From a phage: DNA of 64,000 bases. Below are positions 3,727 through 22,520 of the stretch, in pieces. The notes beneath the pieces are model-generated. The model saw only the letters and a list, made by a program, of their open reading frames with translations. It was not told where the DNA came from and searched no databases. The position numbers and the translations under genes are program-made. Position 1 is the first letter of the stretch, and each line of letters opens with the position of its first letter. Location: assembly GCA_019385495.1 (NCBI GenBank), contig GCA_019385495.1_4102.1, one strand, 5' to 3'.

Positions 3727-4925
3727 TGGATTTTCCAGAGAAGTTATTTGTTGCACGTTCCTATGTAAACCACAACCAAGTTGATGGTTTTATTATCGAT
3801 GCAACAAAATCACATACAAAAGCGTTTGAAACAAAGAAAGAGAGAGCAGAGTACTGGGCAAAGAAGAACAATCTTCCATCGTTATATATTGACAACGTTC
3901 CAACTACTGGATTTTGTGTAGTTGATAAATTAACAATTCATGCACGAGAAACATATTTCACAATCCGTCACCCAGAAGGATTTGAATTTATGATTAGTGC
4001 CAAAAACATGAATGATTTAATTATCAATAACGATATAATCAAAGGTGTTTTTGTAGACCCAATGTTTTTCAACAATAACTTAGAATTAATTAATGGTAAA
4101 ACAAAAACATTTGCTAAGTTAGTTGAAAAAGAAAATAAAAAAGAACAACAAAAAGAAACTGTAGCAGGTCTTAAAGTTGGTGATGGTTTCACGTATCTCA
4201 AAGAAGATTACTATTACTGCGGTAAAGTACATGCAATTTGTATAAAGAAAACTAAAGAATTTGCATACCCCGACAAAAGTTCTGTTTATCATTTACTTTT
4301 TAACAGTACTCGTGGAACTTATGCATTGAATCAACGTTTGGATAATTACAATCTGGAACCTCGTGCACTCTTGAATAAGAAAACTACGGCAGATGAAGAA
4401 ATTAAACTTGCTAATGAATTTTGGCAAAGCTATAGAACAAACAGACATAATCCATTAGGTGAATCTAACATTCCAGTACTGGTACACAATAAATCATTTA
4501 AAGCAAAAGACCTAAAAATTAAATATGAAGAAATAAATGTTGATGATCTTATGAATAATGGACGTTTCAACGAGAACGTACCATTTATGACTAAAGATAA
4601 TGAACAATCTTATCGCGTATTTTTTGGTGTAAGTAATAATACAACACGTAGTTATTATGGACGTAGCGGGGATTATAATATTCATTATAATGATAAATTT
4701 GAACGCTTTAGTGCATACCCAGTTCAAATTGATGATAATGGAATTATGTCAATGGATGTTGATATTAATGAGCACACATCATTTAGTACATGGAACGGTT
4801 ATCGTTCACCATTCTTCCCACCAAATGAACGCAAAACATCAAGTTCTCGTTACTACCAAGATAAGCCGTGTCACGTTCAACTATCAATTAGTAATCCACT
4901 TTATATTGGAAAGTATTATCTATAA
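3723..4925 (+). CDS. hypothetical protein (400 aa)
   Basis: Long ORF, ATGA overlap with upstream gene. Confidence 0.45.
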   Translation: MMDFPEKLFVARSYVNHNQVDGFIIDATKSHTKAFETKKERAEYWAKKNNLPSLYIDNVPTTGFCVVDKLTIHARETYFTIRHPEGFEFMISAKNMNDLIINNDIIKGVFVDPMFFNNNLELINGKTKTFAKLVEKENKKEQQKETVAGLKVGDGFTYLKEDYYYCGKVHAICIKKTKEFAYPDKSSVYHLLFNSTRGTYALNQRLDNYNLEPRALLNKKTTADEEIKLANEFWQSYRTNRHNPLGESNIPVLVHNKSFKAKDLKIKYEEINVDDLMNNGRFNENVPFMTKDNEQSYRVFFGVSNNTTRSYYGRSGDYNIHYNDKFERFSAYPVQIDDNGIMSMDVDINEHTSFSTWNGYRSPFFPPNERKTSSSRYYQDKPCHVQLSISNPLYIGKYYL

Positions 4926-4936
4926 AGGAATATACA

Positions 4937-6355
4937 ATGAGCATTTTAGCAATTCTTGAAAGCATTAAAAATACTAGCAGTACTCTGGGCAAAAAGGCTA
5001 TTCTTGAACAAAATAAAGATAATGTAACTTTGCAAAAAGTTCTGAAATATACACTCGATCCTAGTATTGTAAGTGGGTATAAAAAGCTACCAGACGCTGA
5101 TAACGTGTATCAACATATGACATTGGATGAAGCTATTGATAAACTAGAATGCATCTATAAGCGTGCATTGACGGGACATACAGGGCGTGATTTCATTGCT
5201 TCAGTACTAGGTAGTGTGAGTCCAGATGATGCTGAAGTTCTTCGTAAGATGCTTACAAAGAACTTAGATTGTGGTATTCAAGAAAAGAACTGCAATGATG
5301 TATTTGGTAAAGGATTTATTAAAGATGAACCATATATGCGTTGTTCTTTGCTTGATAAAAAGACTGTTAAGAACATCAACTTCAAAGGTCATGGTTATGC
5401 TGTCTCCGAGGTCAAGATGGATGGTCAGTACTTAAACCATGTAGTCATTAATGGTGCTCTTACCTCTTCCTCCCGTAATGGTAAACTATATGACTTCTTA
5501 GGTTGTCGTGATGGTGAGATGGCAGGTCTTGCACATCAAATTCAAATGAATGATGAACGTTTTAGTAGTGGTGTCGTCTTTATGGGTGAAGGTCTAGTAC
5601 TTGATAATGACGGTGAAACTATTCTTCCACGAACAACTGGTAATGGTATCATTCAGAAGGCTGGTAAAGATAGTATTAGTCAGAATGAAGCAATGCGTAC
5701 TGTATTTGTACTATGGGATGTTGTTCCGTATGATGCATTCTGTGAAGGTACATGGAATGTAAAACGTAAAGAACGTCGCGAACTTCTTGAATCTGCCATC
5801 AATGTATTGGGTAGTGATTTTGTACGTATGGTGAAATACCGTAAGGTTCAAAACATTAAAGAAGCATTTGAGTACAATAACGAACTCATGGATCAGGGTG
5901 AAGAAGGATCAGTACTGAAATGTGAAGATGGTATCTGGAAATCACATACATCTCCTAAGCAGTTGAAAGTAAAACTAAAAATGCAATTGGATTTGCGTAT
6001 TGTTGGTTTCAACGAAGGTGAAGGTAAGCGTAAAGGTTCACTTGGTTCTTTACAACTTGAAAGTGCATGTGGCACACTGAAGGTAAATGTAGGAACAGGT
6101 ATCCGTGAAAAAGATGCAGAGTGGACATTCAAAACCATTTGGGAACGAATGCAAGAACTAATTGGTAAAGTCGTTACCGTTGAGTGCAATGAGATTGTAA
6201 TCGACAAGCGTACAGGTGAACCATCACTATTTTTACCAGTGTTTATTGAATTTAGATTTGACAAAAACACTTGTGACGATTATACTCGTATCTTAGAAAT
6301 TCGTGATAGTGCTGTTGAGGTGTTCTCTAACAGTATTATTGAAGCACTTAGCTAA
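4937..6355 (+). CDS. ATP-dependent DNA ligase (T4 gp30-like)
   Basis: N-terminus KKAILEQNKDN matches T4 ligase KQAILEKNKDN as recalled; KxDG motif (SEVKMDGQ); EGLVLD; C-terminal LFLPVFIEFRFDK resembles ligase motif VI. Confidence 0.85.
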   Translation: MSILAILESIKNTSSTLGKKAILEQNKDNVTLQKVLKYTLDPSIVSGYKKLPDADNVYQHMTLDEAIDKLECIYKRALTGHTGRDFIASVLGSVSPDDAEVLRKMLTKNLDCGIQEKNCNDVFGKGFIKDEPYMRCSLLDKKTVKNINFKGHGYAVSEVKMDGQYLNHVVINGALTSSSRNGKLYDFLGCRDGEMAGLAHQIQMNDERFSSGVVFMGEGLVLDNDGETILPRTTGNGIIQKAGKDSISQNEAMRTVFVLWDVVPYDAFCEGTWNVKRKERRELLESAINVLGSDFVRMVKYRKVQNIKEAFEYNNELMDQGEEGSVLKCEDGIWKSHTSPKQLKVKLKMQLDLRIVGFNEGEGKRKGSLGSLQLESACGTLKVNVGTGIREKDAEWTFKTIWERMQELIGKVVTVECNEIVIDKRTGEPSLFLPVFIEFRFDKNTCDDYTRILEIRDSAVEVFSNSIIEALS

Positions 6356-8032: not shown

Positions 8033-8728
8033 ATGGTTGAACAATTCATGTTTGGTGGTTATGCTAATGGCGAAGTACGTAACATTTCTATTCCTTACGT
8101 AGTTGAGAAAGTTAATGGTTCAGAACGTACATATGATCTAGCATCTCGTATGATGCAAGACCGTATCATTTTCCTTGATACTGATTTCAATGATCAAATG
8201 GCACATATCATCAAACAACAATTGGTATGGTTAGACTCACAAGGTGATTCCCCTATTACATTCTACATTAGTTCACCGGGTGGTTCAGTACACGCAGGTT
8301 TGGGTATTGCAGATGTTGCTAAGTCTTGTATTTCTCCAATTCGCACTGTAGTAATGGGCTATGCAGCATCAATGGGTTGCTATACACAATCTGTAATTGG
8401 TACTAAAGGTTTCCGTTTAGGTGGTAAGCGTTCTTATTTCATGTGTCACCAAGTAAGTTCTGGTACACAAGGTCTAATTACTGACCAGAAGATTTCACTT
8501 AAACATTCTGATGCCCTAAACACTCTATTGACTAAAGAAATTGCAGAAGCAGTTGGTGTATCACACGAACAACTACTGAAAGATGCGGATCGTGACCTGT
8601 GGTTGAACGCTGAAGAAGCACTCGAATACGGTGAACATGGTTTCATTGATGGTATCATCCTCGGACCACGCAACGAAGAAGGTAAGTATCTCGTCAAACG
8701 TCGCGGTGGCGTTGAAGAGTGGGTCTAA
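8033..8728 (+). CDS. ClpP-like serine protease
   Basis: ISSPGGSVHAGLGI and MGYAASMG motifs typical of ClpP; RBS AGAGGAAA. Confidence 0.8.
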   Translation: MVEQFMFGGYANGEVRNISIPYVVEKVNGSERTYDLASRMMQDRIIFLDTDFNDQMAHIIKQQLVWLDSQGDSPITFYISSPGGSVHAGLGIADVAKSCISPIRTVVMGYAASMGCYTQSVIGTKGFRLGGKRSYFMCHQVSSGTQGLITDQKISLKHSDALNTLLTKEIAEAVGVSHEQLLKDADRDLWLNAEEALEYGEHGFIDGIILGPRNEEGKYLVKRRGGVEEWV

Positions 8729-10186: not shown

Positions 10187-10682
10187 TACTAATATCTGGT
10201 TAGATAACATAATCAAGACATTAGAATTAATTAAACTTACATTACAAAAAACTACTGATATTGAAATTAATATTAAACAAGAAATATTAAACTATTATCA
10301 TAGAAACAAATATAGCACGTTTATCTCTAAATTAATTTATGGATTATATGATATTGAAGATATTTGCATCGGTTACAGTACTGGTATTTGCTTCACTGTT
10401 AATGGTTTAAAAAATGATTTAAATTTCAGACTTTCCGATGAAGAGCAAGATTTTCGTAGATTTTGTGATAATATTATGGATACAGACAAAATTACATTTG
10501 TGATTGAATTAAATCAAACATGGTCTACATATGCAGATAAACCATTTGAAATTAATGAAACAGATGTGTTAAACTATATTCGAGTTATGAAAATTCATGA
10601 TTTGTGTAAAAACGCATTGTTAAGTATTGGAGCTTATAATGAAACATACGACTTGGTTGAAGATAGCAGAAGTAGTTGCTGA
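10158..10682 (+). CDS. hypothetical protein (very AT-rich)
   Basis: ORF. Confidence 0.4.
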   Translation: MKYTHLSIDDTNIWLDNIIKTLELIKLTLQKTTDIEINIKQEILNYYHRNKYSTFISKLIYGLYDIEDICIGYSTGICFTVNGLKNDLNFRLSDEEQDFRRFCDNIMDTDKITFVIELNQTWSTYADKPFEINETDVLNYIRVMKIHDLCKNALLSIGAYNETYDLVEDSRSSC

Positions 10683-11118
10683 GGAAAGTAAATGTATTTC
10701 ACAAAAAGTTGGTTGTGTTATTGTTAAAAATAATAGAGTATTGAGTACTGGATACAATGGAACGCCATCTAAGCAGCCAAACTGTTGTGATGTAAATCAA
10801 CATTTAGTGAACGATGGTCGTTTTCAAGACTGGGTTGATGATGCAGCAAAACATGAACATCATGAGTGGAGTAATATTCATGAGATCCATGCAGAGATGA
10901 ACGCTTTACTGTATAGTTCTCCGACTGAACGCCAAGGAGCAACTCTTTACACAACTCTACAACCATGCTATACTTGTTCTAAGTTAATCGCAGGTAGTGG
11001 GATTACCCGTGTAATTTATCACAAAAGTTATCCACGAACACCACCTGAAGCGATTAAAGTACTGGAAGATGCTGGGATTATTGTTAACTGCATTTATGAC
11101 AAGGGTATGAATCAATGA
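10639..11118 (+). CDS. cd: dCMP deaminase
   Basis: Zinc-binding HAEMNAL and PCYTCSKLI motifs of the CDA/dCMP deaminase family; RBS GGAG. Confidence 0.85.
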   Translation: MKHTTWLKIAEVVAEESKCISQKVGCVIVKNNRVLSTGYNGTPSKQPNCCDVNQHLVNDGRFQDWVDDAAKHEHHEWSNIHEIHAEMNALLYSSPTERQGATLYTTLQPCYTCSKLIAGSGITRVIYHKSYPRTPPEAIKVLEDAGIIVNCIYDKGMNQ

Positions 11119-12084: not shown

Positions 12085-12693
12085 ATGAAAAGACTATGGC
12101 TTGAGGTAGTACAAGCAGTAATGCTTCTGATGTTGATAAATTTTCCAGCCAGTGCTGGTATTGAAAGTAAAAATGTGATAAAGTACAATCCTGAAACACG
12201 TAATGTATATTTCATCTCAGATATTACGGATGGGTCACTAAAGCGTATGATGGAGTTGTATGATAAAGAACACTATGATACCATTACCATCACATCGCCA
12301 GGTGGTGATTTTGATGCTGGGATTAAAATGGCAAACTTCGTTAGAGACAATGGTATAAATTTAATTGTTTCTAGGTATTGCAACTCAGCATGTACTGTGG
12401 TATTCTTCAGTGTAGCTTTTGAAAAGCGATACATGATAAATCGCTCAGTACTGGGTCTTCATAACATTTCGATTAAAAGTAATGTTACTGATGGTGATAA
12501 TTCATTTGTGTCTGTAAGACAGCTATCAACTTTTACCGAAGAAATGGCAACAAAGGTAGGTTTCCTTTTTTCACTATATGCAGCAAATGGAATCCCACCA
12601 GAAGTTCTATTTAGAGTTAGTCGTTCTCGTGGTGAAGATGTTGTAATATTAACAAAACCAGAACTGGTTTTTTACGGTTCAGTCAAACAATAA
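12085..12693 (+). CDS. secreted ClpP/crotonase-fold-like protein
   Basis: Signal-peptide-like N-terminus; ITSPGGDFDAG motif resembling ClpP/SppA. Confidence 0.4.
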   Translation: MKRLWLEVVQAVMLLMLINFPASAGIESKNVIKYNPETRNVYFISDITDGSLKRMMELYDKEHYDTITITSPGGDFDAGIKMANFVRDNGINLIVSRYCNSACTVVFFSVAFEKRYMINRSVLGLHNISIKSNVTDGDNSFVSVRQLSTFTEEMATKVGFLFSLYAANGIPPEVLFRVSRSRGEDVVILTKPELVFYGSVKQ

Positions 12694-12763: not shown

Positions 12764-13024
12764 ATGACAAACATCCAAAACTTGACATCTATTATTTTTT
12801 ATGCTACTGTAGTAATGTATGCTACAGTTATTTTTCTAACAGTTTTCATTTACAAAGATTATCGTAATGGCTTTATTGATCCAACTACAATGAAGTTCAA
12901 TTCAAAATTCGAAGCAATAATTTATTATGTACTATCAACTTCATACTTGGTGTGCCTAATGTTGTTAGGAGCACTAATTTATATCTTATACACAACATTA
13001 TTTGCAATTGGAGCTATTTTATGA
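12764..13024 (+). CDS. small membrane protein
   Basis: Two hydrophobic helices. Confidence 0.4.
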   Translation: MTNIQNLTSIIFYATVVMYATVIFLTVFIYKDYRNGFIDPTTMKFNSKFEAIIYYVLSTSYLVCLMLLGALIYILYTTLFAIGAIL

Positions 13025-13614
13025 CCTGTATTATTGCACACACTGACGGAGTAAGTTCTTTTATTGCTGGGGATAAGTTAGGAAGCAATGGATTTACAAA
13101 AACTGTTCAAACTGAGCCAAAGGTATTCGAGAAAGAATTTATCAAGTTACATGATGATGGACTAACTAGAACTAAAGAAGTAATGGCATTGGGTTATACT
13201 ACATCATTTCGTATGGGTCAGTTGTTAAATTATAACCTTAATTTACCTGAACAAGATGCTAGTCAAACATTTTCACAATATTTGGTTCTTAAAGTTATTC
13301 CAATCATTCGTCAAATGTTTAAAGAAGAATGGGGTGCACGAGATGCATCACAAGATGTAGGTGGTGGACAATTTATCATTCTCCACAATCATACAATCTA
13401 TGAAGTTCAAGAAGACTTTTCAGTACTACAACCTAAAACAAGAATTACCGCAGTAGGTAGTGGGACATATCATGCAATTGCAGCAATGCAAGCATATATT
13501 GAAGTTGAGAACGAATCTAAAAAACCACTACACGAACGTATCAAATCAATTTTTAAAATTGTTAGTGATAATGTAACAAGCGTAAGCGAAGAGTTTGATG
13601 TTTTAAAATATTAA
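13021..13614 (+). CDS. HslV/proteasome-beta-like Ntn hydrolase
   Basis: MT-CIIAHTDG..IAGDKLGSNG N-terminus (Thr right after Met) and AVGSGTYHAIAAM near C-terminus, resembling HslV; ATGA overlap. Confidence 0.5.
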   Translation: MTCIIAHTDGVSSFIAGDKLGSNGFTKTVQTEPKVFEKEFIKLHDDGLTRTKEVMALGYTTSFRMGQLLNYNLNLPEQDASQTFSQYLVLKVIPIIRQMFKEEWGARDASQDVGGGQFIILHNHTIYEVQEDFSVLQPKTRITAVGSGTYHAIAAMQAYIEVENESKKPLHERIKSIFKIVSDNVTSVSEEFDVLKY

Positions 13615-13641: not shown

Positions 13642-13836
13642 ATGATGGCATACACAATTTATGAATGGGTTTTGAGTTTTTTTATAGTTTTTTCTATTGT
13701 TGTAATTTATAACAATGCTAAATGCTTATATAGAGACTTGAAATCCAATGGTTATCACAAAGATAATAATTTTATGTATGCCTATCATATTGGAATCATT
13801 CTGTTATTATCAATATATTTAATTGTTTTTTTATAA
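13642..13836 (+). CDS. small membrane protein
   Basis: 64 aa hydrophobic. Confidence 0.35.
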   Translation: MMAYTIYEWVLSFFIVFSIVVIYNNAKCLYRDLKSNGYHKDNNFMYAYHIGIILLLSIYLIVFL

Positions 13837-13845
13837 GGATTGAAT

Positions 13846-14598
13846 ATGATATCAGAAAAATTTATAAGCAATGAAGGTAAAAAGCGATTACTGATTATAT
13901 CAGGTGCAGGACTTTCTGTTGAAAGTGGTATGGAACCTTTTCGATTTGATGATGGTTTGTGGGATACATTTAAAATTAATGATGTATGTAACATTGCTAG
14001 TTTAACTACGAAATATCACGTTGTTCATTCCTTCTATAATACATTACGTGTAAAATTGGGACAATGCGAACCCAATGCAATGCATTATTTTATAAAATCG
14101 TTAGAAGATCAATATGGTGATTGCTTCCTTCATATGACTTCTAACATGGACGATCTTTATACTCGTATTGGTGGTCATGAGCTTAAACTTCATGGAAACT
14201 TGTGCGAAGTTATTGAAAATTATAGTATCAATTCCGATGATTATAATGTTATTAACTGCGGATACGAACCATACATACCAAAACATGATGTTTTTGCTAA
14301 ACCAAATGTAGTAATGATTGGAGAATATCATCGTTATGTTGATGGTATTCGCTTACCAATTTACGAAGAACGAAATAATGTGTTGAAATCTCTTAATGAA
14401 AATGATACAGTTATTGTAATTGGTAGTAGCGATACAGTACTGGTATGGTCGAGATTAGCAGCAGCATTACCATGTTATAGTGTTAATGTTAACATTCGTA
14501 AAAATGATAATGATTTTTTGTTTAATGAAAAAGTTATCAAGCCAGCAACCAAAGCAATACCGCATCTAGAGACTATAATTAAGGAACGTATGAAATGA
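13846..14598 (+). CDS. Sir2-family NAD-dependent deacylase/ADP-ribosyltransferase
   Basis: SGAGLSVESGMEPFR, TSNMDDLYTRIGG..ELKLHG, PNVVMIGE, VIVIGSSDTV sirtuin motifs; canonical CxxC zinc pairs absent. Confidence 0.75.
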   Translation: MISEKFISNEGKKRLLIISGAGLSVESGMEPFRFDDGLWDTFKINDVCNIASLTTKYHVVHSFYNTLRVKLGQCEPNAMHYFIKSLEDQYGDCFLHMTSNMDDLYTRIGGHELKLHGNLCEVIENYSINSDDYNVINCGYEPYIPKHDVFAKPNVVMIGEYHRYVDGIRLPIYEERNNVLKSLNENDTVIVIGSSDTVLVWSRLAAALPCYSVNVNIRKNDNDFLFNEKVIKPATKAIPHLETIIKERMK

Positions 14599-15146
14599 GT
14601 GTTAAAGAAGTTCCCTTTGGTGAATATGGCACACGTGCAAATTTTGTATTTTGTTATTTCTTTGCAAGAAAATGCAACCCTTACAAAAACTATGAGTTGA
14701 ATGATATACCAGAAGTAAATTTAGTATTACTGCAATTACGATGGGATGGTCTTCTTGGTGGATGTGGTGGAACCGTAGAAAGTACTGATATCTCACTAGA
14801 AGATGCGTTGCGTCGTGAAGTTCAAGAAGAAATGGATTACAATATTTTTGTTTCCCATCTTCGACCACTCAAAACTTTTGAAATTTACCCAGGTGCAAAC
14901 AGTCACAGTTTTAGCTATGAAGTAACCTATGACGAGTTGAAACACATTAGAGATGGATACACTAATGCTAAACATGCAAGTGCAGAAGTTGCTGGTGTAA
15001 ATTTATGTCATATTTCTCGTTATTCTAAGGGACAAAATCGAGAAGCGGGATATAATAATCTTATGACACAGAACTTCATCGGTACAGCAAAACAAGAATT
15101 GGAGTATCTGGTTCAAAAAGAAAACTTACTAATTAGTTATCTATAG
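14595..15146 (+). CDS. Nudix-like hydrolase
   Basis: WDGLLGGCGGTVES..ALRREVQEE resembles a Nudix box; ATGA overlap with Sir2 gene. Confidence 0.55.
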   Translation: MSVKEVPFGEYGTRANFVFCYFFARKCNPYKNYELNDIPEVNLVLLQLRWDGLLGGCGGTVESTDISLEDALRREVQEEMDYNIFVSHLRPLKTFEIYPGANSHSFSYEVTYDELKHIRDGYTNAKHASAEVAGVNLCHISRYSKGQNREAGYNNLMTQNFIGTAKQELEYLVQKENLLISYL

Positions 15147-15155
15147 GAGTTTAAC

Positions 15156-15476
15156 ATGTCTTACTCAATGTTTTTGGATGATATTCGTGATGCAAATCTA
15201 TATTATCCAAACCAAGATATGGTGGTATGTCGTGACTTTAAAAGTGCATGTGAATATGTTATTGAAAATGGAATTCCAGCATTTGTATCATTCGACCATG
15301 ACTTGGGTGATGTGAGCGAAGACGAAAAGACTGGATATTCTTTTGCTAAGTTTCTTATTGATTATATGTTTGATAATAATATTAAAGAACCGTTTGAGTA
15401 CTTTGTTCACAGTAGTAATCCTGTTGGTAAAATTAATATTGAAACATACTTAAACAATGGATTTAACTCATTATGA
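15156..15476 (+). CDS. hypothetical protein
   Basis: ORF. Confidence 0.4.
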   Translation: MSYSMFLDDIRDANLYYPNQDMVVCRDFKSACEYVIENGIPAFVSFDHDLGDVSEDEKTGYSFAKFLIDYMFDNNIKEPFEYFVHSSNPVGKINIETYLNNGFNSL

Positions 15477-15835: not shown

Positions 15836-17275
15836 ATGAAAAAATATACAATTGACACAAACGTACTACTATCTGACCCTAATGCATCTATTGCTTTTGA
15901 TGGTGCTGCAATCATTCTACCATTTACAGTACTGGAAGAATTGGATTCAATTAAGAGTCGTAATGTAGATGTTTCACGCGATGCTCGTGTTGCTATTCGT
16001 AACATTGAAGCAATTATTGCAGATGCATCACATGATGAGATTAGTAGTACTGGTGTTAATATTGCTGATGTTCATACCAATATGAATCCTGATAGCAAAT
16101 TGTTTGTTATTACAAACGAAGAAGCTGAAGCACTAATTCGTACTAAAGGTTCAGAAGAGAAAGTTCAAACCCTTCTCAAAAGCACAGTACCTGATGATAA
16201 AATCATTCTGGTAGCTTTAGCAACAGAATCAGTACTGGTAACTCGTGATATCAACATGCGTATCAAAGCACTAAGTTATGGTGTCGAGGTACAAGATTAT
16301 CGCCATGATATTGTTATTGGTGATAGTGATTTGATTCACATTGGTCAACACCATTTGGAAATCAATTTTTGGGAAGTATATAGCAACTTAACCAATACTA
16401 ATATTCAATCCGAACAAGTTGGTCGTCGTTTGTATCATTACATTTCCAAAAGCTTGATTGAGCATTTGCTCCCACAAAATCTATGCATCGGGGATTATCT
16501 ATATGATGATGCAGACGTATTATTTGTGTACGAAGGTCAATCAGCAATTGAGGAAGATGATGGAACACTAACACCAGAAGATATTTTGGTATTCCAAGAT
16601 ATTGGACAATCAGTAGCTTTACGTGCTAAAGTATGGGATATTAAAGCAAAGAATATCCAACAAGCACTCGCCATCAACAGTATTCTCGATCCTGATGTAC
16701 ATCTAACAGTACTGCTAGGTTCTGCTGGTACTGGTAAAACACTAATTACGATTGCGACTGCATTAGAATTAGTACTGGAAAAACGTAAATACGACCGAAT
16801 CATCTTCTCTAAAACTCAAGACTCACAGTTTGAAGATATTGGTTTCTTGCCAGGTTCAGAAGCAGAAAAAGTGATTCCATTCTGTGGAGCCGCAATTGAC
16901 GCGTTAGAGTTTCTTCATAAAGATGATGCTAACCCTCAAGGTAGTATTGAAGAGATTATGAAACGTAATGTTATTCAATTTAAAGCACTAAACTTTGTAC
17001 GTGGACGTTCATTCACCAACACTATTCTAGTAGTTGATGAATTCCAAAACATTACACCTGCACAAGCCAAAACAATCTTGACACGAGCAGGATTAAACTG
17101 TAAAGTAGTAATTATGGGTAACTTGAGTCAGATTGACAGTAAGTTTATTAGTCCTGTTAACAGTGGTTTGACATATGTAACTGAGAAGTTTAAAGATTGG
17201 GCAGGTTGTCGTGTCATCGAACTTGAAGGTGTTGTTCGCTCACCACTAGCTGAATTTGCTGAAGAAAATATGTAA
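15836..17275 (+). CDS. phoH: PhoH-like ATPase with N-terminal PIN domain
   Basis: Walker A LLGSAGTGKT; 479 aa architecture typical of PIN-PhoH. Confidence 0.85.
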   Translation: MKKYTIDTNVLLSDPNASIAFDGAAIILPFTVLEELDSIKSRNVDVSRDARVAIRNIEAIIADASHDEISSTGVNIADVHTNMNPDSKLFVITNEEAEALIRTKGSEEKVQTLLKSTVPDDKIILVALATESVLVTRDINMRIKALSYGVEVQDYRHDIVIGDSDLIHIGQHHLEINFWEVYSNLTNTNIQSEQVGRRLYHYISKSLIEHLLPQNLCIGDYLYDDADVLFVYEGQSAIEEDDGTLTPEDILVFQDIGQSVALRAKVWDIKAKNIQQALAINSILDPDVHLTVLLGSAGTGKTLITIATALELVLEKRKYDRIIFSKTQDSQFEDIGFLPGSEAEKVIPFCGAAIDALEFLHKDDANPQGSIEEIMKRNVIQFKALNFVRGRSFTNTILVVDEFQNITPAQAKTILTRAGLNCKVVIMGNLSQIDSKFISPVNSGLTYVTEKFKDWAGCRVIELEGVVRSPLAEFAEENM

Positions 17276-21879: not shown

Positions 21880-22098
21880 ATGGAAAAATATGACATAATT
21901 TACGATTATTATGGTAAGGCTTATATGAAGTGTGGGCGTTATGTTGAACTCTCTAATAGAGAATCAATAGATCCCCACACTCTTATAACAATTCATAATT
22001 CGTACTATAAAAAAGTTACAATAGCTAATTTCGCTACATACGTGAATAATCCATTATTTCCTTACATTATTCAGTACTACTGTAGAGTTATCAAATAA
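21880..22098 (+). CDS. hypothetical protein
   Basis: ORF. Confidence 0.35.
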   Translation: MEKYDIIYDYYGKAYMKCGRYVELSNRESIDPHTLITIHNSYYKKVTIANFATYVNNPLFPYIIQYYCRVIK

Positions 22099-22109
22099 GG
22101 TAAAAAGAA

Positions 22110-22520
22110 ATGTTAGCTGATGAATTTATGTCACTAAGTATCAAGATATTTGATATACTAGGTGATGAAACAGATTTCAATCTAAGCGACAAAGATATTC
22201 CATTGGAAGATGGTGGATACTTTTTTGCGATTGGAACTACGTATAATCTGGATCTTTCAAAGCCTATCAGTGATGATAGTGATTATAATGCAACAACATA
22301 TTTTGATTTCCAGCTTGATGGACATAAAGAGCGTTTACTAACGTACAGACGTAAAGGTAGTTTCAATAGAACCGAGATTACAATAATGGATTTTGAAAAA
22401 CGCATTGAACTAGCTAAGAAACATCCATTCATCAGTACTCATACATTTAATAGACTAATCGATCTATTAGATAATTATCCATATACAATCCGAGGGTCGT
22501 TACGTTTAAATGCAGAATGA
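22110..22520 (+). CDS. hypothetical protein
   Basis: ORF. Confidence 0.45.
   Translation: MLADEFMSLSIKIFDILGDETDFNLSDKDIPLEDGGYFFAIGTTYNLDLSKPISDDSDYNATTYFDFQLDGHKERLLTYRRKGSFNRTEITIMDFEKRIELAKKHPFISTHTFNRLIDLLDNYPYTIRGSLRLNAE

Follow-up and report, generated by a model that had tools for sequence, protein, structure and literature searches.

A predicted HslV-like threonine hydrolase of the proteasome type encoded by a jumbo coliphage

The gene at positions 13021..13614 (+ strand) of a 64,000-nt stretch of phage DNA (GenBank assembly GCA_019385495.1, contig GCA_019385495.1_4102.1; the whole stretch is called the window here) encodes a 197-aa protein which we assign to the N-terminal nucleophile (Ntn) hydrolases of the proteasome/HslV type (MEROPS T1-type; Pfam clan NTN). 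This assignment of fold and family is held with very high confidence, because the predicted fold, the profile homology and every catalytic residue agree. By the identity of this protein to those of jumbo phages, the window is placed in the Asteriusvirus-like group of ~350-kb coliphages. With regard to function, we favor, with moderate confidence, a cytoplasmic and propeptide-free threonine Ntn peptidase, which would probably form rings and act without an unfoldase of the phage. The family as such is already known, since it is annotated in public records and its kind was described by Fuchs et al. (2021). A reading of the window from its letters alone (the sequence-only reading) had proposed an HslV/proteasome-beta-like Ntn hydrolase at this position; as the outcome of a genome scan this was a correct call of an already annotated protein.

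Homology to HslV and the proteasome

A family alignment of 41 sequences (A1) was used for profile searches, for hhalign and for AlphaFold2. Against solved HslV chains, the A1 profile gave a full-length match with an E-value of 7.3e-8, followed by 20S beta subunits of actinobacteria and archaea and by BPH. Comparison with E. coli HslV by hhalign resulted in a probability of 95.75% (E 8.4e-9), whereby Thr1, Asp17, Lys33, Gly45 and the GSG loop of HslV were paired with Thr2, Asp18, Lys34, Gly58 and Gly146-Ser147-Gly148 of the phage protein. The resemblance to HslV signatures noticed in the sequence-only reading is thus real. Also, phrog_1040 ('peptidase HslV family') was matched by residues 1–196 (E 4e-24, 86.7 bits).

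When the phage protein was searched as a single sequence, Pfam PF00227 was not matched even at E ≤ 10, and a phmmer search against the PDB returned noise, with recoverin ranking above HslV. Relatives reached 19.8 and 17.6 bits against PF00227, which is below the gathering cutoff of 22.4, and one relative carries a precomputed PF00227 match. In Pfam, the single sequence matched the connectase N-terminal domain below the threshold (E 0.088) and with its C-terminal 40 residues only. The HslV equivalogs of NCBIfam, TIGR03692 and NF003964, yielded 19.9 and 18.9 bits versus cutoffs of 137 and 157.75, and this match was confined to residues 119–171. Homology to the proteasome Ntn hydrolases appears to be visible at the profile level only, the single sequence being too divergent for the curated models.

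Predicted structure

The AlphaFold2 model calculated with A1 had a mean predicted local distance difference test score (pLDDT) of 93.7 and a predicted template modeling score (pTM) of 0.89. Its strands and helices follow the order of a proteasome-type subunit and form the four-layer alpha-beta-beta-alpha Ntn fold of the proteasome beta/HslV type, with helices H1–H4 predicted at residues 63–72, 84–104, 149–166 and 170–184. Structure prediction, which had been named as a check on the HslV-like assignment, thereby returned an Ntn fold and not an unrelated one. In a Foldseek search against the PDB, HslV was the top match (E 7e-11), and BPH was found with template modeling (TM) scores of up to 0.78. 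Identity in the structural alignments was ~16–18% with HslV and ~16% with BPH. Judged from the model, BPH and HslV are equally close to the phage protein in structure.

Catalytic residues and their conservation

Conservation was counted over the query and 208 relatives (209 sequences in total), most of which are representatives of clusters at 50% identity. The residues of the predicted active site are encoded as follows:

13024..13026, + strand: codon of Thr2 (mature Thr1), predicted N-terminal nucleophile, aligned to HslV Thr1; Thr in 209 of 209
13072..13074, + strand: codon of Asp18 (mature Asp17), predicted catalytic triad, aligned to HslV Asp17; Asp in 209 of 209
13120..13122, + strand: codon of Lys34 (mature Lys33), predicted catalytic triad, aligned to HslV Lys33; Lys in 209 of 209
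13192..13194, + strand: codon of Gly58, corresponding to HslV Gly45 and proteasome Gly47 (oxyanion hole); Gly in 206 of 209 (98.6%)
13456..13464, + strand: codons of Gly146-Ser147-Gly148, GSG loop, aligned to the HslV GSG loop (G-S124-G)

Gly58, whose proteasome counterpart Gly47 has a described role in the oxyanion hole (PMC8665760), opens the family signature G-x-T-x-S-F-R-x-G-Q. Within the GSG loop, Gly146 is present in all 209 aligned sequences and Gly148 in 207 of them. More than 97% conservation was found for Gly58, Gly148, Thr60, Ser62, Arg64, Gly116, Ala152 and Val188.

The predicted nucleophile is Thr, because Thr is more conserved than the neighboring Cys3 and because Asp17 and Lys33 count exactly from Thr. 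A Cys nucleophile of the class-II amidotransferase type was rejected on these two grounds, and a catalytically dead pseudoenzyme was rejected as well. Since Thr directly follows the initiator Met, autocatalytic removal of a propeptide is not needed. For BPH expressed in E. coli, removal of Met with exposure of Thr1 was shown by mass spectrometry (PMC5777263). By analogy, the initiator Met of the phage protein would be removed by deformylase and methionine aminopeptidase of the host.

Two observations in this region are not accounted for by current knowledge of HslV and the proteasome. Cys3 (13027–13029), which stands next to the nucleophile Thr and is the source of the 'MTC' start, is 96.7% conserved, and the middle position of the GSG loop, residue 147 (13459–13461), is dimorphic, as 109 sequences have Ser there and 84 have Cys.

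The gene and its start codon

The open reading frame (ORF) extends on the + strand from the ATG at 13021 to the TAA at 13612–13614 (197 codons plus stop), and its translation is MTCIIAHTDGVSSFIAGDKLGSNG...AVGSGTYHAIAAM...VLKY. The following elements were located:

13021..13614, + strand: coding sequence of the HslV-like Ntn hydrolase, stop codon counted, 197 aa
13010..13013, + strand: GGAG Shine-Dalgarno sequence, 7 nt 5′ of the ATG, found by sequence inspection
13021–13050, + strand: aa 1–10, MTCIIAHTDG
13063–13092, + strand: aa 15–24, IAGDKLGSNG
13450–13488, + strand: aa 144–156, AVGSGTYHAIAAM

The last three of these are the motifs that had been quoted in the sequence-only reading, and checking of the translation recovered each of them where it had been placed. 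Thr directly after the initiator Met (MTCIIAHTDG), which had been described there, is a trait of nearly the whole family, as 203 of the 208 relatives begin with Met-Thr and 196 of the 208 with MTC.

A GTG start at 12952, which would give a protein of 220 aa and came from a mechanical ORF list, was rejected because the relatives start with Met-Thr at the called start codon and because almost all representatives in a library-wide profile search aligned to position 1 of the profile with their very first residue. The ATG (13021–13023) overlaps the TGA stop codon (13022–13024) of the preceding ORF 12764..13024 in the sequence ATGA, which suggests translational coupling of the HslV-like gene to this ORF. 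A scan for promoters and terminators gave no signal above the shuffled background.

An extended S3/S4 hairpin in the jumbo-phage clade

The phage protein differs from the shorter members of its family by an insertion close to the predicted active site:

13132..13173, + strand: 14-aa insertion (aa 38–51), KEFIKLHDDGLTRT, present in the jumbo-phage clade only; predicted to lengthen the S3/S4 beta-hairpin by the substrate groove

This segment directly follows Lys34-Val-Phe and is found in A1 only in relatives with at least 49% identity; shorter relatives (~180 aa) are devoid of it, and it is also an insertion in the hhalign alignment. In the model, strands at residues 35–43 and 50–59 (pLDDT 94–96) represent a lengthening of both S3 and S4. 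The S3-S4 hairpin pairs with bound inhibitor in BPH and the proteasome (PMC5777263), and the signature insertion of connectase is located at the same S3/S4 site (PMC8665760). The hairpin extension by 14 residues probably alters substrate access or specificity in the jumbo-phage clade.

Relationship to HslV, BPH and other proteasome homologues

HslV (ClpQ; PDB 1E94, 1M4Y, 5JI3) and the phage protein are similar in size, carry Thr right after Met, have no long propeptide, and their Thr1, Asp17, Lys33, Gly45 and G-S-G loop positions all align. However, besides the identity of only ~16–18%, the phage protein stays more than 100 bits under the curated HslV models, it has neither an adjacent nor a phage-encoded hslU, and the basic pore cluster of HslV is not clearly conserved. 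Furthermore, the phage family has signatures of its own, namely the MTC start, G-x-T-x-SFRMGQ and the 14-aa S3/S4 insertion. We regard the protein as HslV-like and not as an HslV orthologue, because the curated models failed, because it is predicted to be equally close to BPH and because hslU is not adjacent. The label 'HslV family' overstates its kinship to true HslV.

With BPH (PDB 5OVS, 5OVT, 5OVU), the phage protein shares the lack of a propeptide, a Thr1 that is presumably bared by Met removal in the same way, and the lack of a known partner unfoldase (PMC5777263). It differs in the pore loop, which is long and highly acidic in the tetradecameric assembly of BPH, whereas the corresponding loop of the phage protein (aa 105–117, WGARDASQDVGGG; pLDDT 79–85) is of mixed charge and not strongly acidic. 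No occurrence of BPH in phages has been reported (PMC8665760 Table 1).

AAH, CPH and PPH were described by Fuchs, Alva and Lupas (2021) as compact and propeptide-free homologues of the HslV/BPH-like group I, which occur in bacteria and Caudovirales and lack both a conserved context and an AAA+ partner (PMC8665760). The phage family shares this picture, including chromosomal copies in Alphaproteobacteria. PPH, with ~140 residues and without helix H2, was excluded, as the phage protein comprises 197 aa (family median 186 aa) and is predicted to contain H1–H4. Compared by published description, AAH or CPH fits better with respect to size, helices and a distribution over phages and Alphaproteobacteria, and the phage protein is compatible with either of them. 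Among the named top matches there was no actinobacterial member.

Proposed mode of action

In the mechanism that we favor, host deformylase and methionine aminopeptidase would take off the initiator Met, thereby making Thr the first residue. The hydroxyl group of Thr1, activated by Lys33, Asp17 and the free alpha-amine, would then attack peptide bonds, while the backbone of Gly58 and the GSG loop would stabilize the reaction. The enzyme would act in the cytoplasm of the infected cell and be expressed together with genes for nucleotide metabolism and replication. It is probably a self-compartmentalizing peptidase built as a double ring, as are the two proteins closest to it in structure. No unfoldase of the phage would take part; the enzyme may work independently of ATP on peptides and unfolded proteins, or it may borrow a host factor. 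Candidate roles are the turnover of proteins or peptides of the host and the elimination of certain host factors.

Several points weigh against this mechanism. BPH, the closest solved structure, reacts with epoxomicin, yet protease activity was not seen in vitro (PMC5777263), and because of this the designation 'peptidase' is inferred only, namely from the active-site architecture. The invariant residues peculiar to the family (Cys3, Thr60, Ser62, Arg64 and Gln67) could mean another chemistry or another class of substrates, and the lengthened S3/S4 hairpin might not allow the subunits to form a ring. The early/middle gene context of the family is generic and provides no specific functional link. 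Finally, phage proteasome homologues have been catalogued, and literature searches turned up no functional study or activity data for any member of this family, only mentions in genome annotations.

Genomic neighborhood and the missing unfoldase

The HslV-like gene sits within a long array of + strand genes, of which the following surround it in the window:

8033..8728, + strand: full-length ClpP homologue (Pfam CLP_protease, E 3.3e-41; PHROG 'head maturation protease')
10627..11118, + strand: dCMP deaminase
12085..12693, + strand: signal-peptide protein of 202 aa, N-terminal signal-peptide-like segment MKRLWLEVVQAVMLLMLINFPASAG (sub-threshold Clp match, E 0.0074; phrog_26024 'protease')
12764..13024, + strand: small membrane ORF of 86 aa, very hydrophobic, two apparent transmembrane segments
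13642..13836, + strand: small membrane ORF of 64 aa, very hydrophobic, two apparent transmembrane segments
13840..14598, + strand: Sir2 (E 3.7e-20)
14595..15146, + strand: Nudt16-like Nudix hydrolase (E 8e-19), overlapping Sir2 by 4 nt
15156..15476, + strand: protein with a cREC_REC 'cyclic-phosphate processing receiver' domain (E 1.5e-22)
15836..17275, + strand: PhoH-like protein

Genes of an anaerobic ribonucleotide reductase (RNR) are located further downstream of the PhoH-like gene. The proximity of ClpP-like genes, to which the sequence-only reading had pointed, holds for the true ClpP homologue at a distance of 4.3 kb, but not with equal strength for the protein encoded 330 bp upstream at 12085..12693, which reached a sub-threshold Clp match only. 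The latter gene may code for a serine protease of the Clp fold that is exported. The two small hydrophobic ORFs 12764..13024 and 13642..13836 had no match in Pfam or PHROG and are not kept beside relatives elsewhere. The Sir2/Nudix/cREC_REC array (13840..15476) may represent a module for NAD/ADP-ribose or RNA-end processing. Two side observations concern this region: the phage apparently has two dCMP deaminase-like genes ~10 kb apart (10627..11118 in the window and 21903..22271 in the extracted locus L001), and its ClpP (8033..8728) is likewise without an obvious phage-encoded unfoldase.

In unrelated phages, PhoH and ligase genes are also found around members of the family. The HslV-like gene of a T5-like phage is located between thymidylate synthase/RNR and RNase H, that of a Vibrio phage near thymidylate synthase, thymidine kinase and peptide deformylase, and that of Xanthomonas phage Xoo-sp13 directly after dCMP deaminase. 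On metagenomic contigs, OMP decarboxylase, SAICAR synthase or DnaB adjoin the gene. In all these cases, the locus is an early/middle region of replication and nucleotide metabolism. An all-against-all BLAST of the flanking ORFs of eight loci revealed no shared family that could be a conserved neighbor or partner.

Neither an HslU-like sequence nor a paralogue was detected in the 64-kb window, and HslU was not adjacent in six other phage and metagenomic loci. The neighbors of the Azospirillum copy, i.e. gltX, cysS, a DJ-1/PfpI-like gene and nadE, included no cognate HslU. With HslU as tblastn query, nothing pointed to a phage ATPase of the ClpX/HslU type in this group of phages. Phage homologues of HslU were found in a different kind of jumbo phages, those of Erwinia and Salmonella, and in only four Escherichia-named records; by contrast, ~35 Escherichia-named jumbo-phage records carry the HslV-like gene.

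Alternative explanations

HslV being the best match in both the sequence-profile and the Foldseek searches, the protein could be a functional HslV substitute, i.e. a dodecamer which docks to the HslU ATPase of the host and thereby redirects ATP-dependent degradation during infection. The phage has no HslU of its own, E. coli encodes hslVU, and the other known hosts (Salmonella, Vibrio, Aeromonas, Xanthomonas and Geobacillus) also encode HslU or CodX. Nevertheless, we consider such docking unlikely. The scores of the HslV equivalogs fall far short of their cutoffs, and of the three basic residues at the pore entrance of HslV (Arg86, Arg89 and Lys90), which align to E, R and D in hhalign, only one is paired with a basic residue, in a poorly aligned region of low confidence. 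HslV Lys28, which we take to bind the HslU C-terminus, aligns to Val. Moreover, no co-occurrence with AAA+ proteins and no informative context was seen for the new homologues by Fuchs et al. (PMC8665760).

A broader reading, to which we give rather little weight, combines several of the results. In this case a phage-spread 'mini-proteasome' independent of an unfoldase, or a non-degradative threonine Ntn processing enzyme or ligase, would act on particular host proteins, e.g. defense or stress factors, and the S3/S4 hairpin of the jumbo-phage clade would serve as a specificity or gating element. It is compatible with the results because the active site is intact, no partner was found, the protein is absent from virions and unrelated phage lineages have acquired the gene.

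Use of the proteasome-like site beyond bulk proteolysis, as a connectase-like ligase or transpeptidase, as a specific processing enzyme or as a small-molecule amidase linked to nucleotide/NAD genes, is improbable in our view. Connectase is a monomeric, specific ligase with an insertion at the same S3/S4 site (PMC8665760), but in the phage family the insertion is missing from most members and thus cannot define the function of the family. The weak Pfam match to the connectase N-terminal domain points in the same direction as the insertion, yet it lies below the threshold and covers the C-terminal 40 residues only. Genes of nucleotide metabolism recur as neighbors, but no neighbor is conserved that might be a substrate or partner. 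The family-specific invariant residues Cys3, Arg64 and Gln67, and BPH as a homologue without detectable protease activity (PMC5777263), remain in favor of this explanation.

A head-maturation or virion-associated protease acting with the nearby ClpP-like genes, as might be thought from the ClpP homologue with its PHROG label, from another predicted protease 0.3 kb away and from the virion proteins gp347 and PhoH-like gp341c encoded nearby in phAPEC6 (PMC7247149), is largely refuted, because the 100% identical gp345c of phAPEC6 was missing from the 62 virion proteins identified by mass spectrometry and the prohead protease of this phage is a separate T4-like gene, gp227c (PMC7247149), and, in addition, the T5-like, Vibrio and Xanthomonas relatives lie in replication/nucleotide regions without Clp neighbors.

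Distribution and existing annotation of the family

A 100% identical protein is present in 12 jumbo-phage records, including phAPEC6, G17, UB, E9.1 and JP4, and identity is 98.5% to the protein of PBECO4 (NC_027364.1) and 91% to that of 121Q (NC_025447.1). On several of these records the existing labels are 'HslV family peptidase' and 'peptidase HslV family', on others 'protease' or 'hypothetical protein'. The family is present in 198 of 50,697 phage records. Its carriers are the jumbo phages of the coliphage/Salmonella-phage group and many T5-like Epseptimavirus phages, followed by phages of Vibrio, Aeromonas, Xanthomonas, Yersinia and Geobacillus. In BFVD, 38 viral structure clusters show the same fold, among them clusters from Gordonia, Pseudomonas, Caulobacter, Serratia and Acinetobacter phages. 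With these numbers, the rarity of proteasome-like peptidases in phages, as it had been assumed at the outset, is true in relative terms only.

The family is large and occurs in tractable phages, i.e. in T5-like phages, members of the BASEL collection among them, and in E. coli jumbo phages. With all catalytic residues kept and yet no unfoldase, it could reveal the role of a partner-less proteasome-like enzyme in infection.

The family also occurs in thousands of metagenomic clusters and on bacterial chromosomes. A profile search yielded 8,429 clusters (50% identity) at E ≤ 1e-3, at least 2,235 of them at E ≤ 1e-30, and a second search with bacterial seeds yielded no fewer than 6,800 clusters (90% identity). 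Relatives were found in at least 390 species genomes, the best ones in Azospirillum (many species), Polyangiaceae, Paenibacillus, Dehalococcoidia and Patescibacteria. Chromosomal copies in Alphaproteobacteria occur in Azospirillum, Devosia and Mesorhizobium. The Azospirillum copy belongs to a cluster of 99 members (P0218) on multi-megabase contigs, and its context is that of housekeeping genes and not of a prophage. In Azospirillum sp. A26, it is located on chromosome 1 (locus L077, 5197..6567), where the genus-wide copy stands between gltX/cysS and nadE, immediately after an ORF of the same strand that weakly resembles DJ-1/PfpI. It has been named 'HslVU peptidase subunit' by JGI and hypothetical by NCBI.

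A subfamily of longer relatives (~255–390 aa; P0081, P0053, P0100, P0115 and P0118, and locus L004 at 4001..4989) carries a long acidic linker and a C-terminal motif. The C-terminal extensions of these relatives contained no Pfam domain. The conserved motif comprises ~35 aa, e.g. ...KYPHNIGIEKLREKILKHL or FSPNASGTKMAALIINFMKE, and resembles helix-extended-helix (SAP/HeH-like) modules. In the annotation of Vibrio phage R16F, this arrangement is split into two genes (4001..4642 and 4645..4989).

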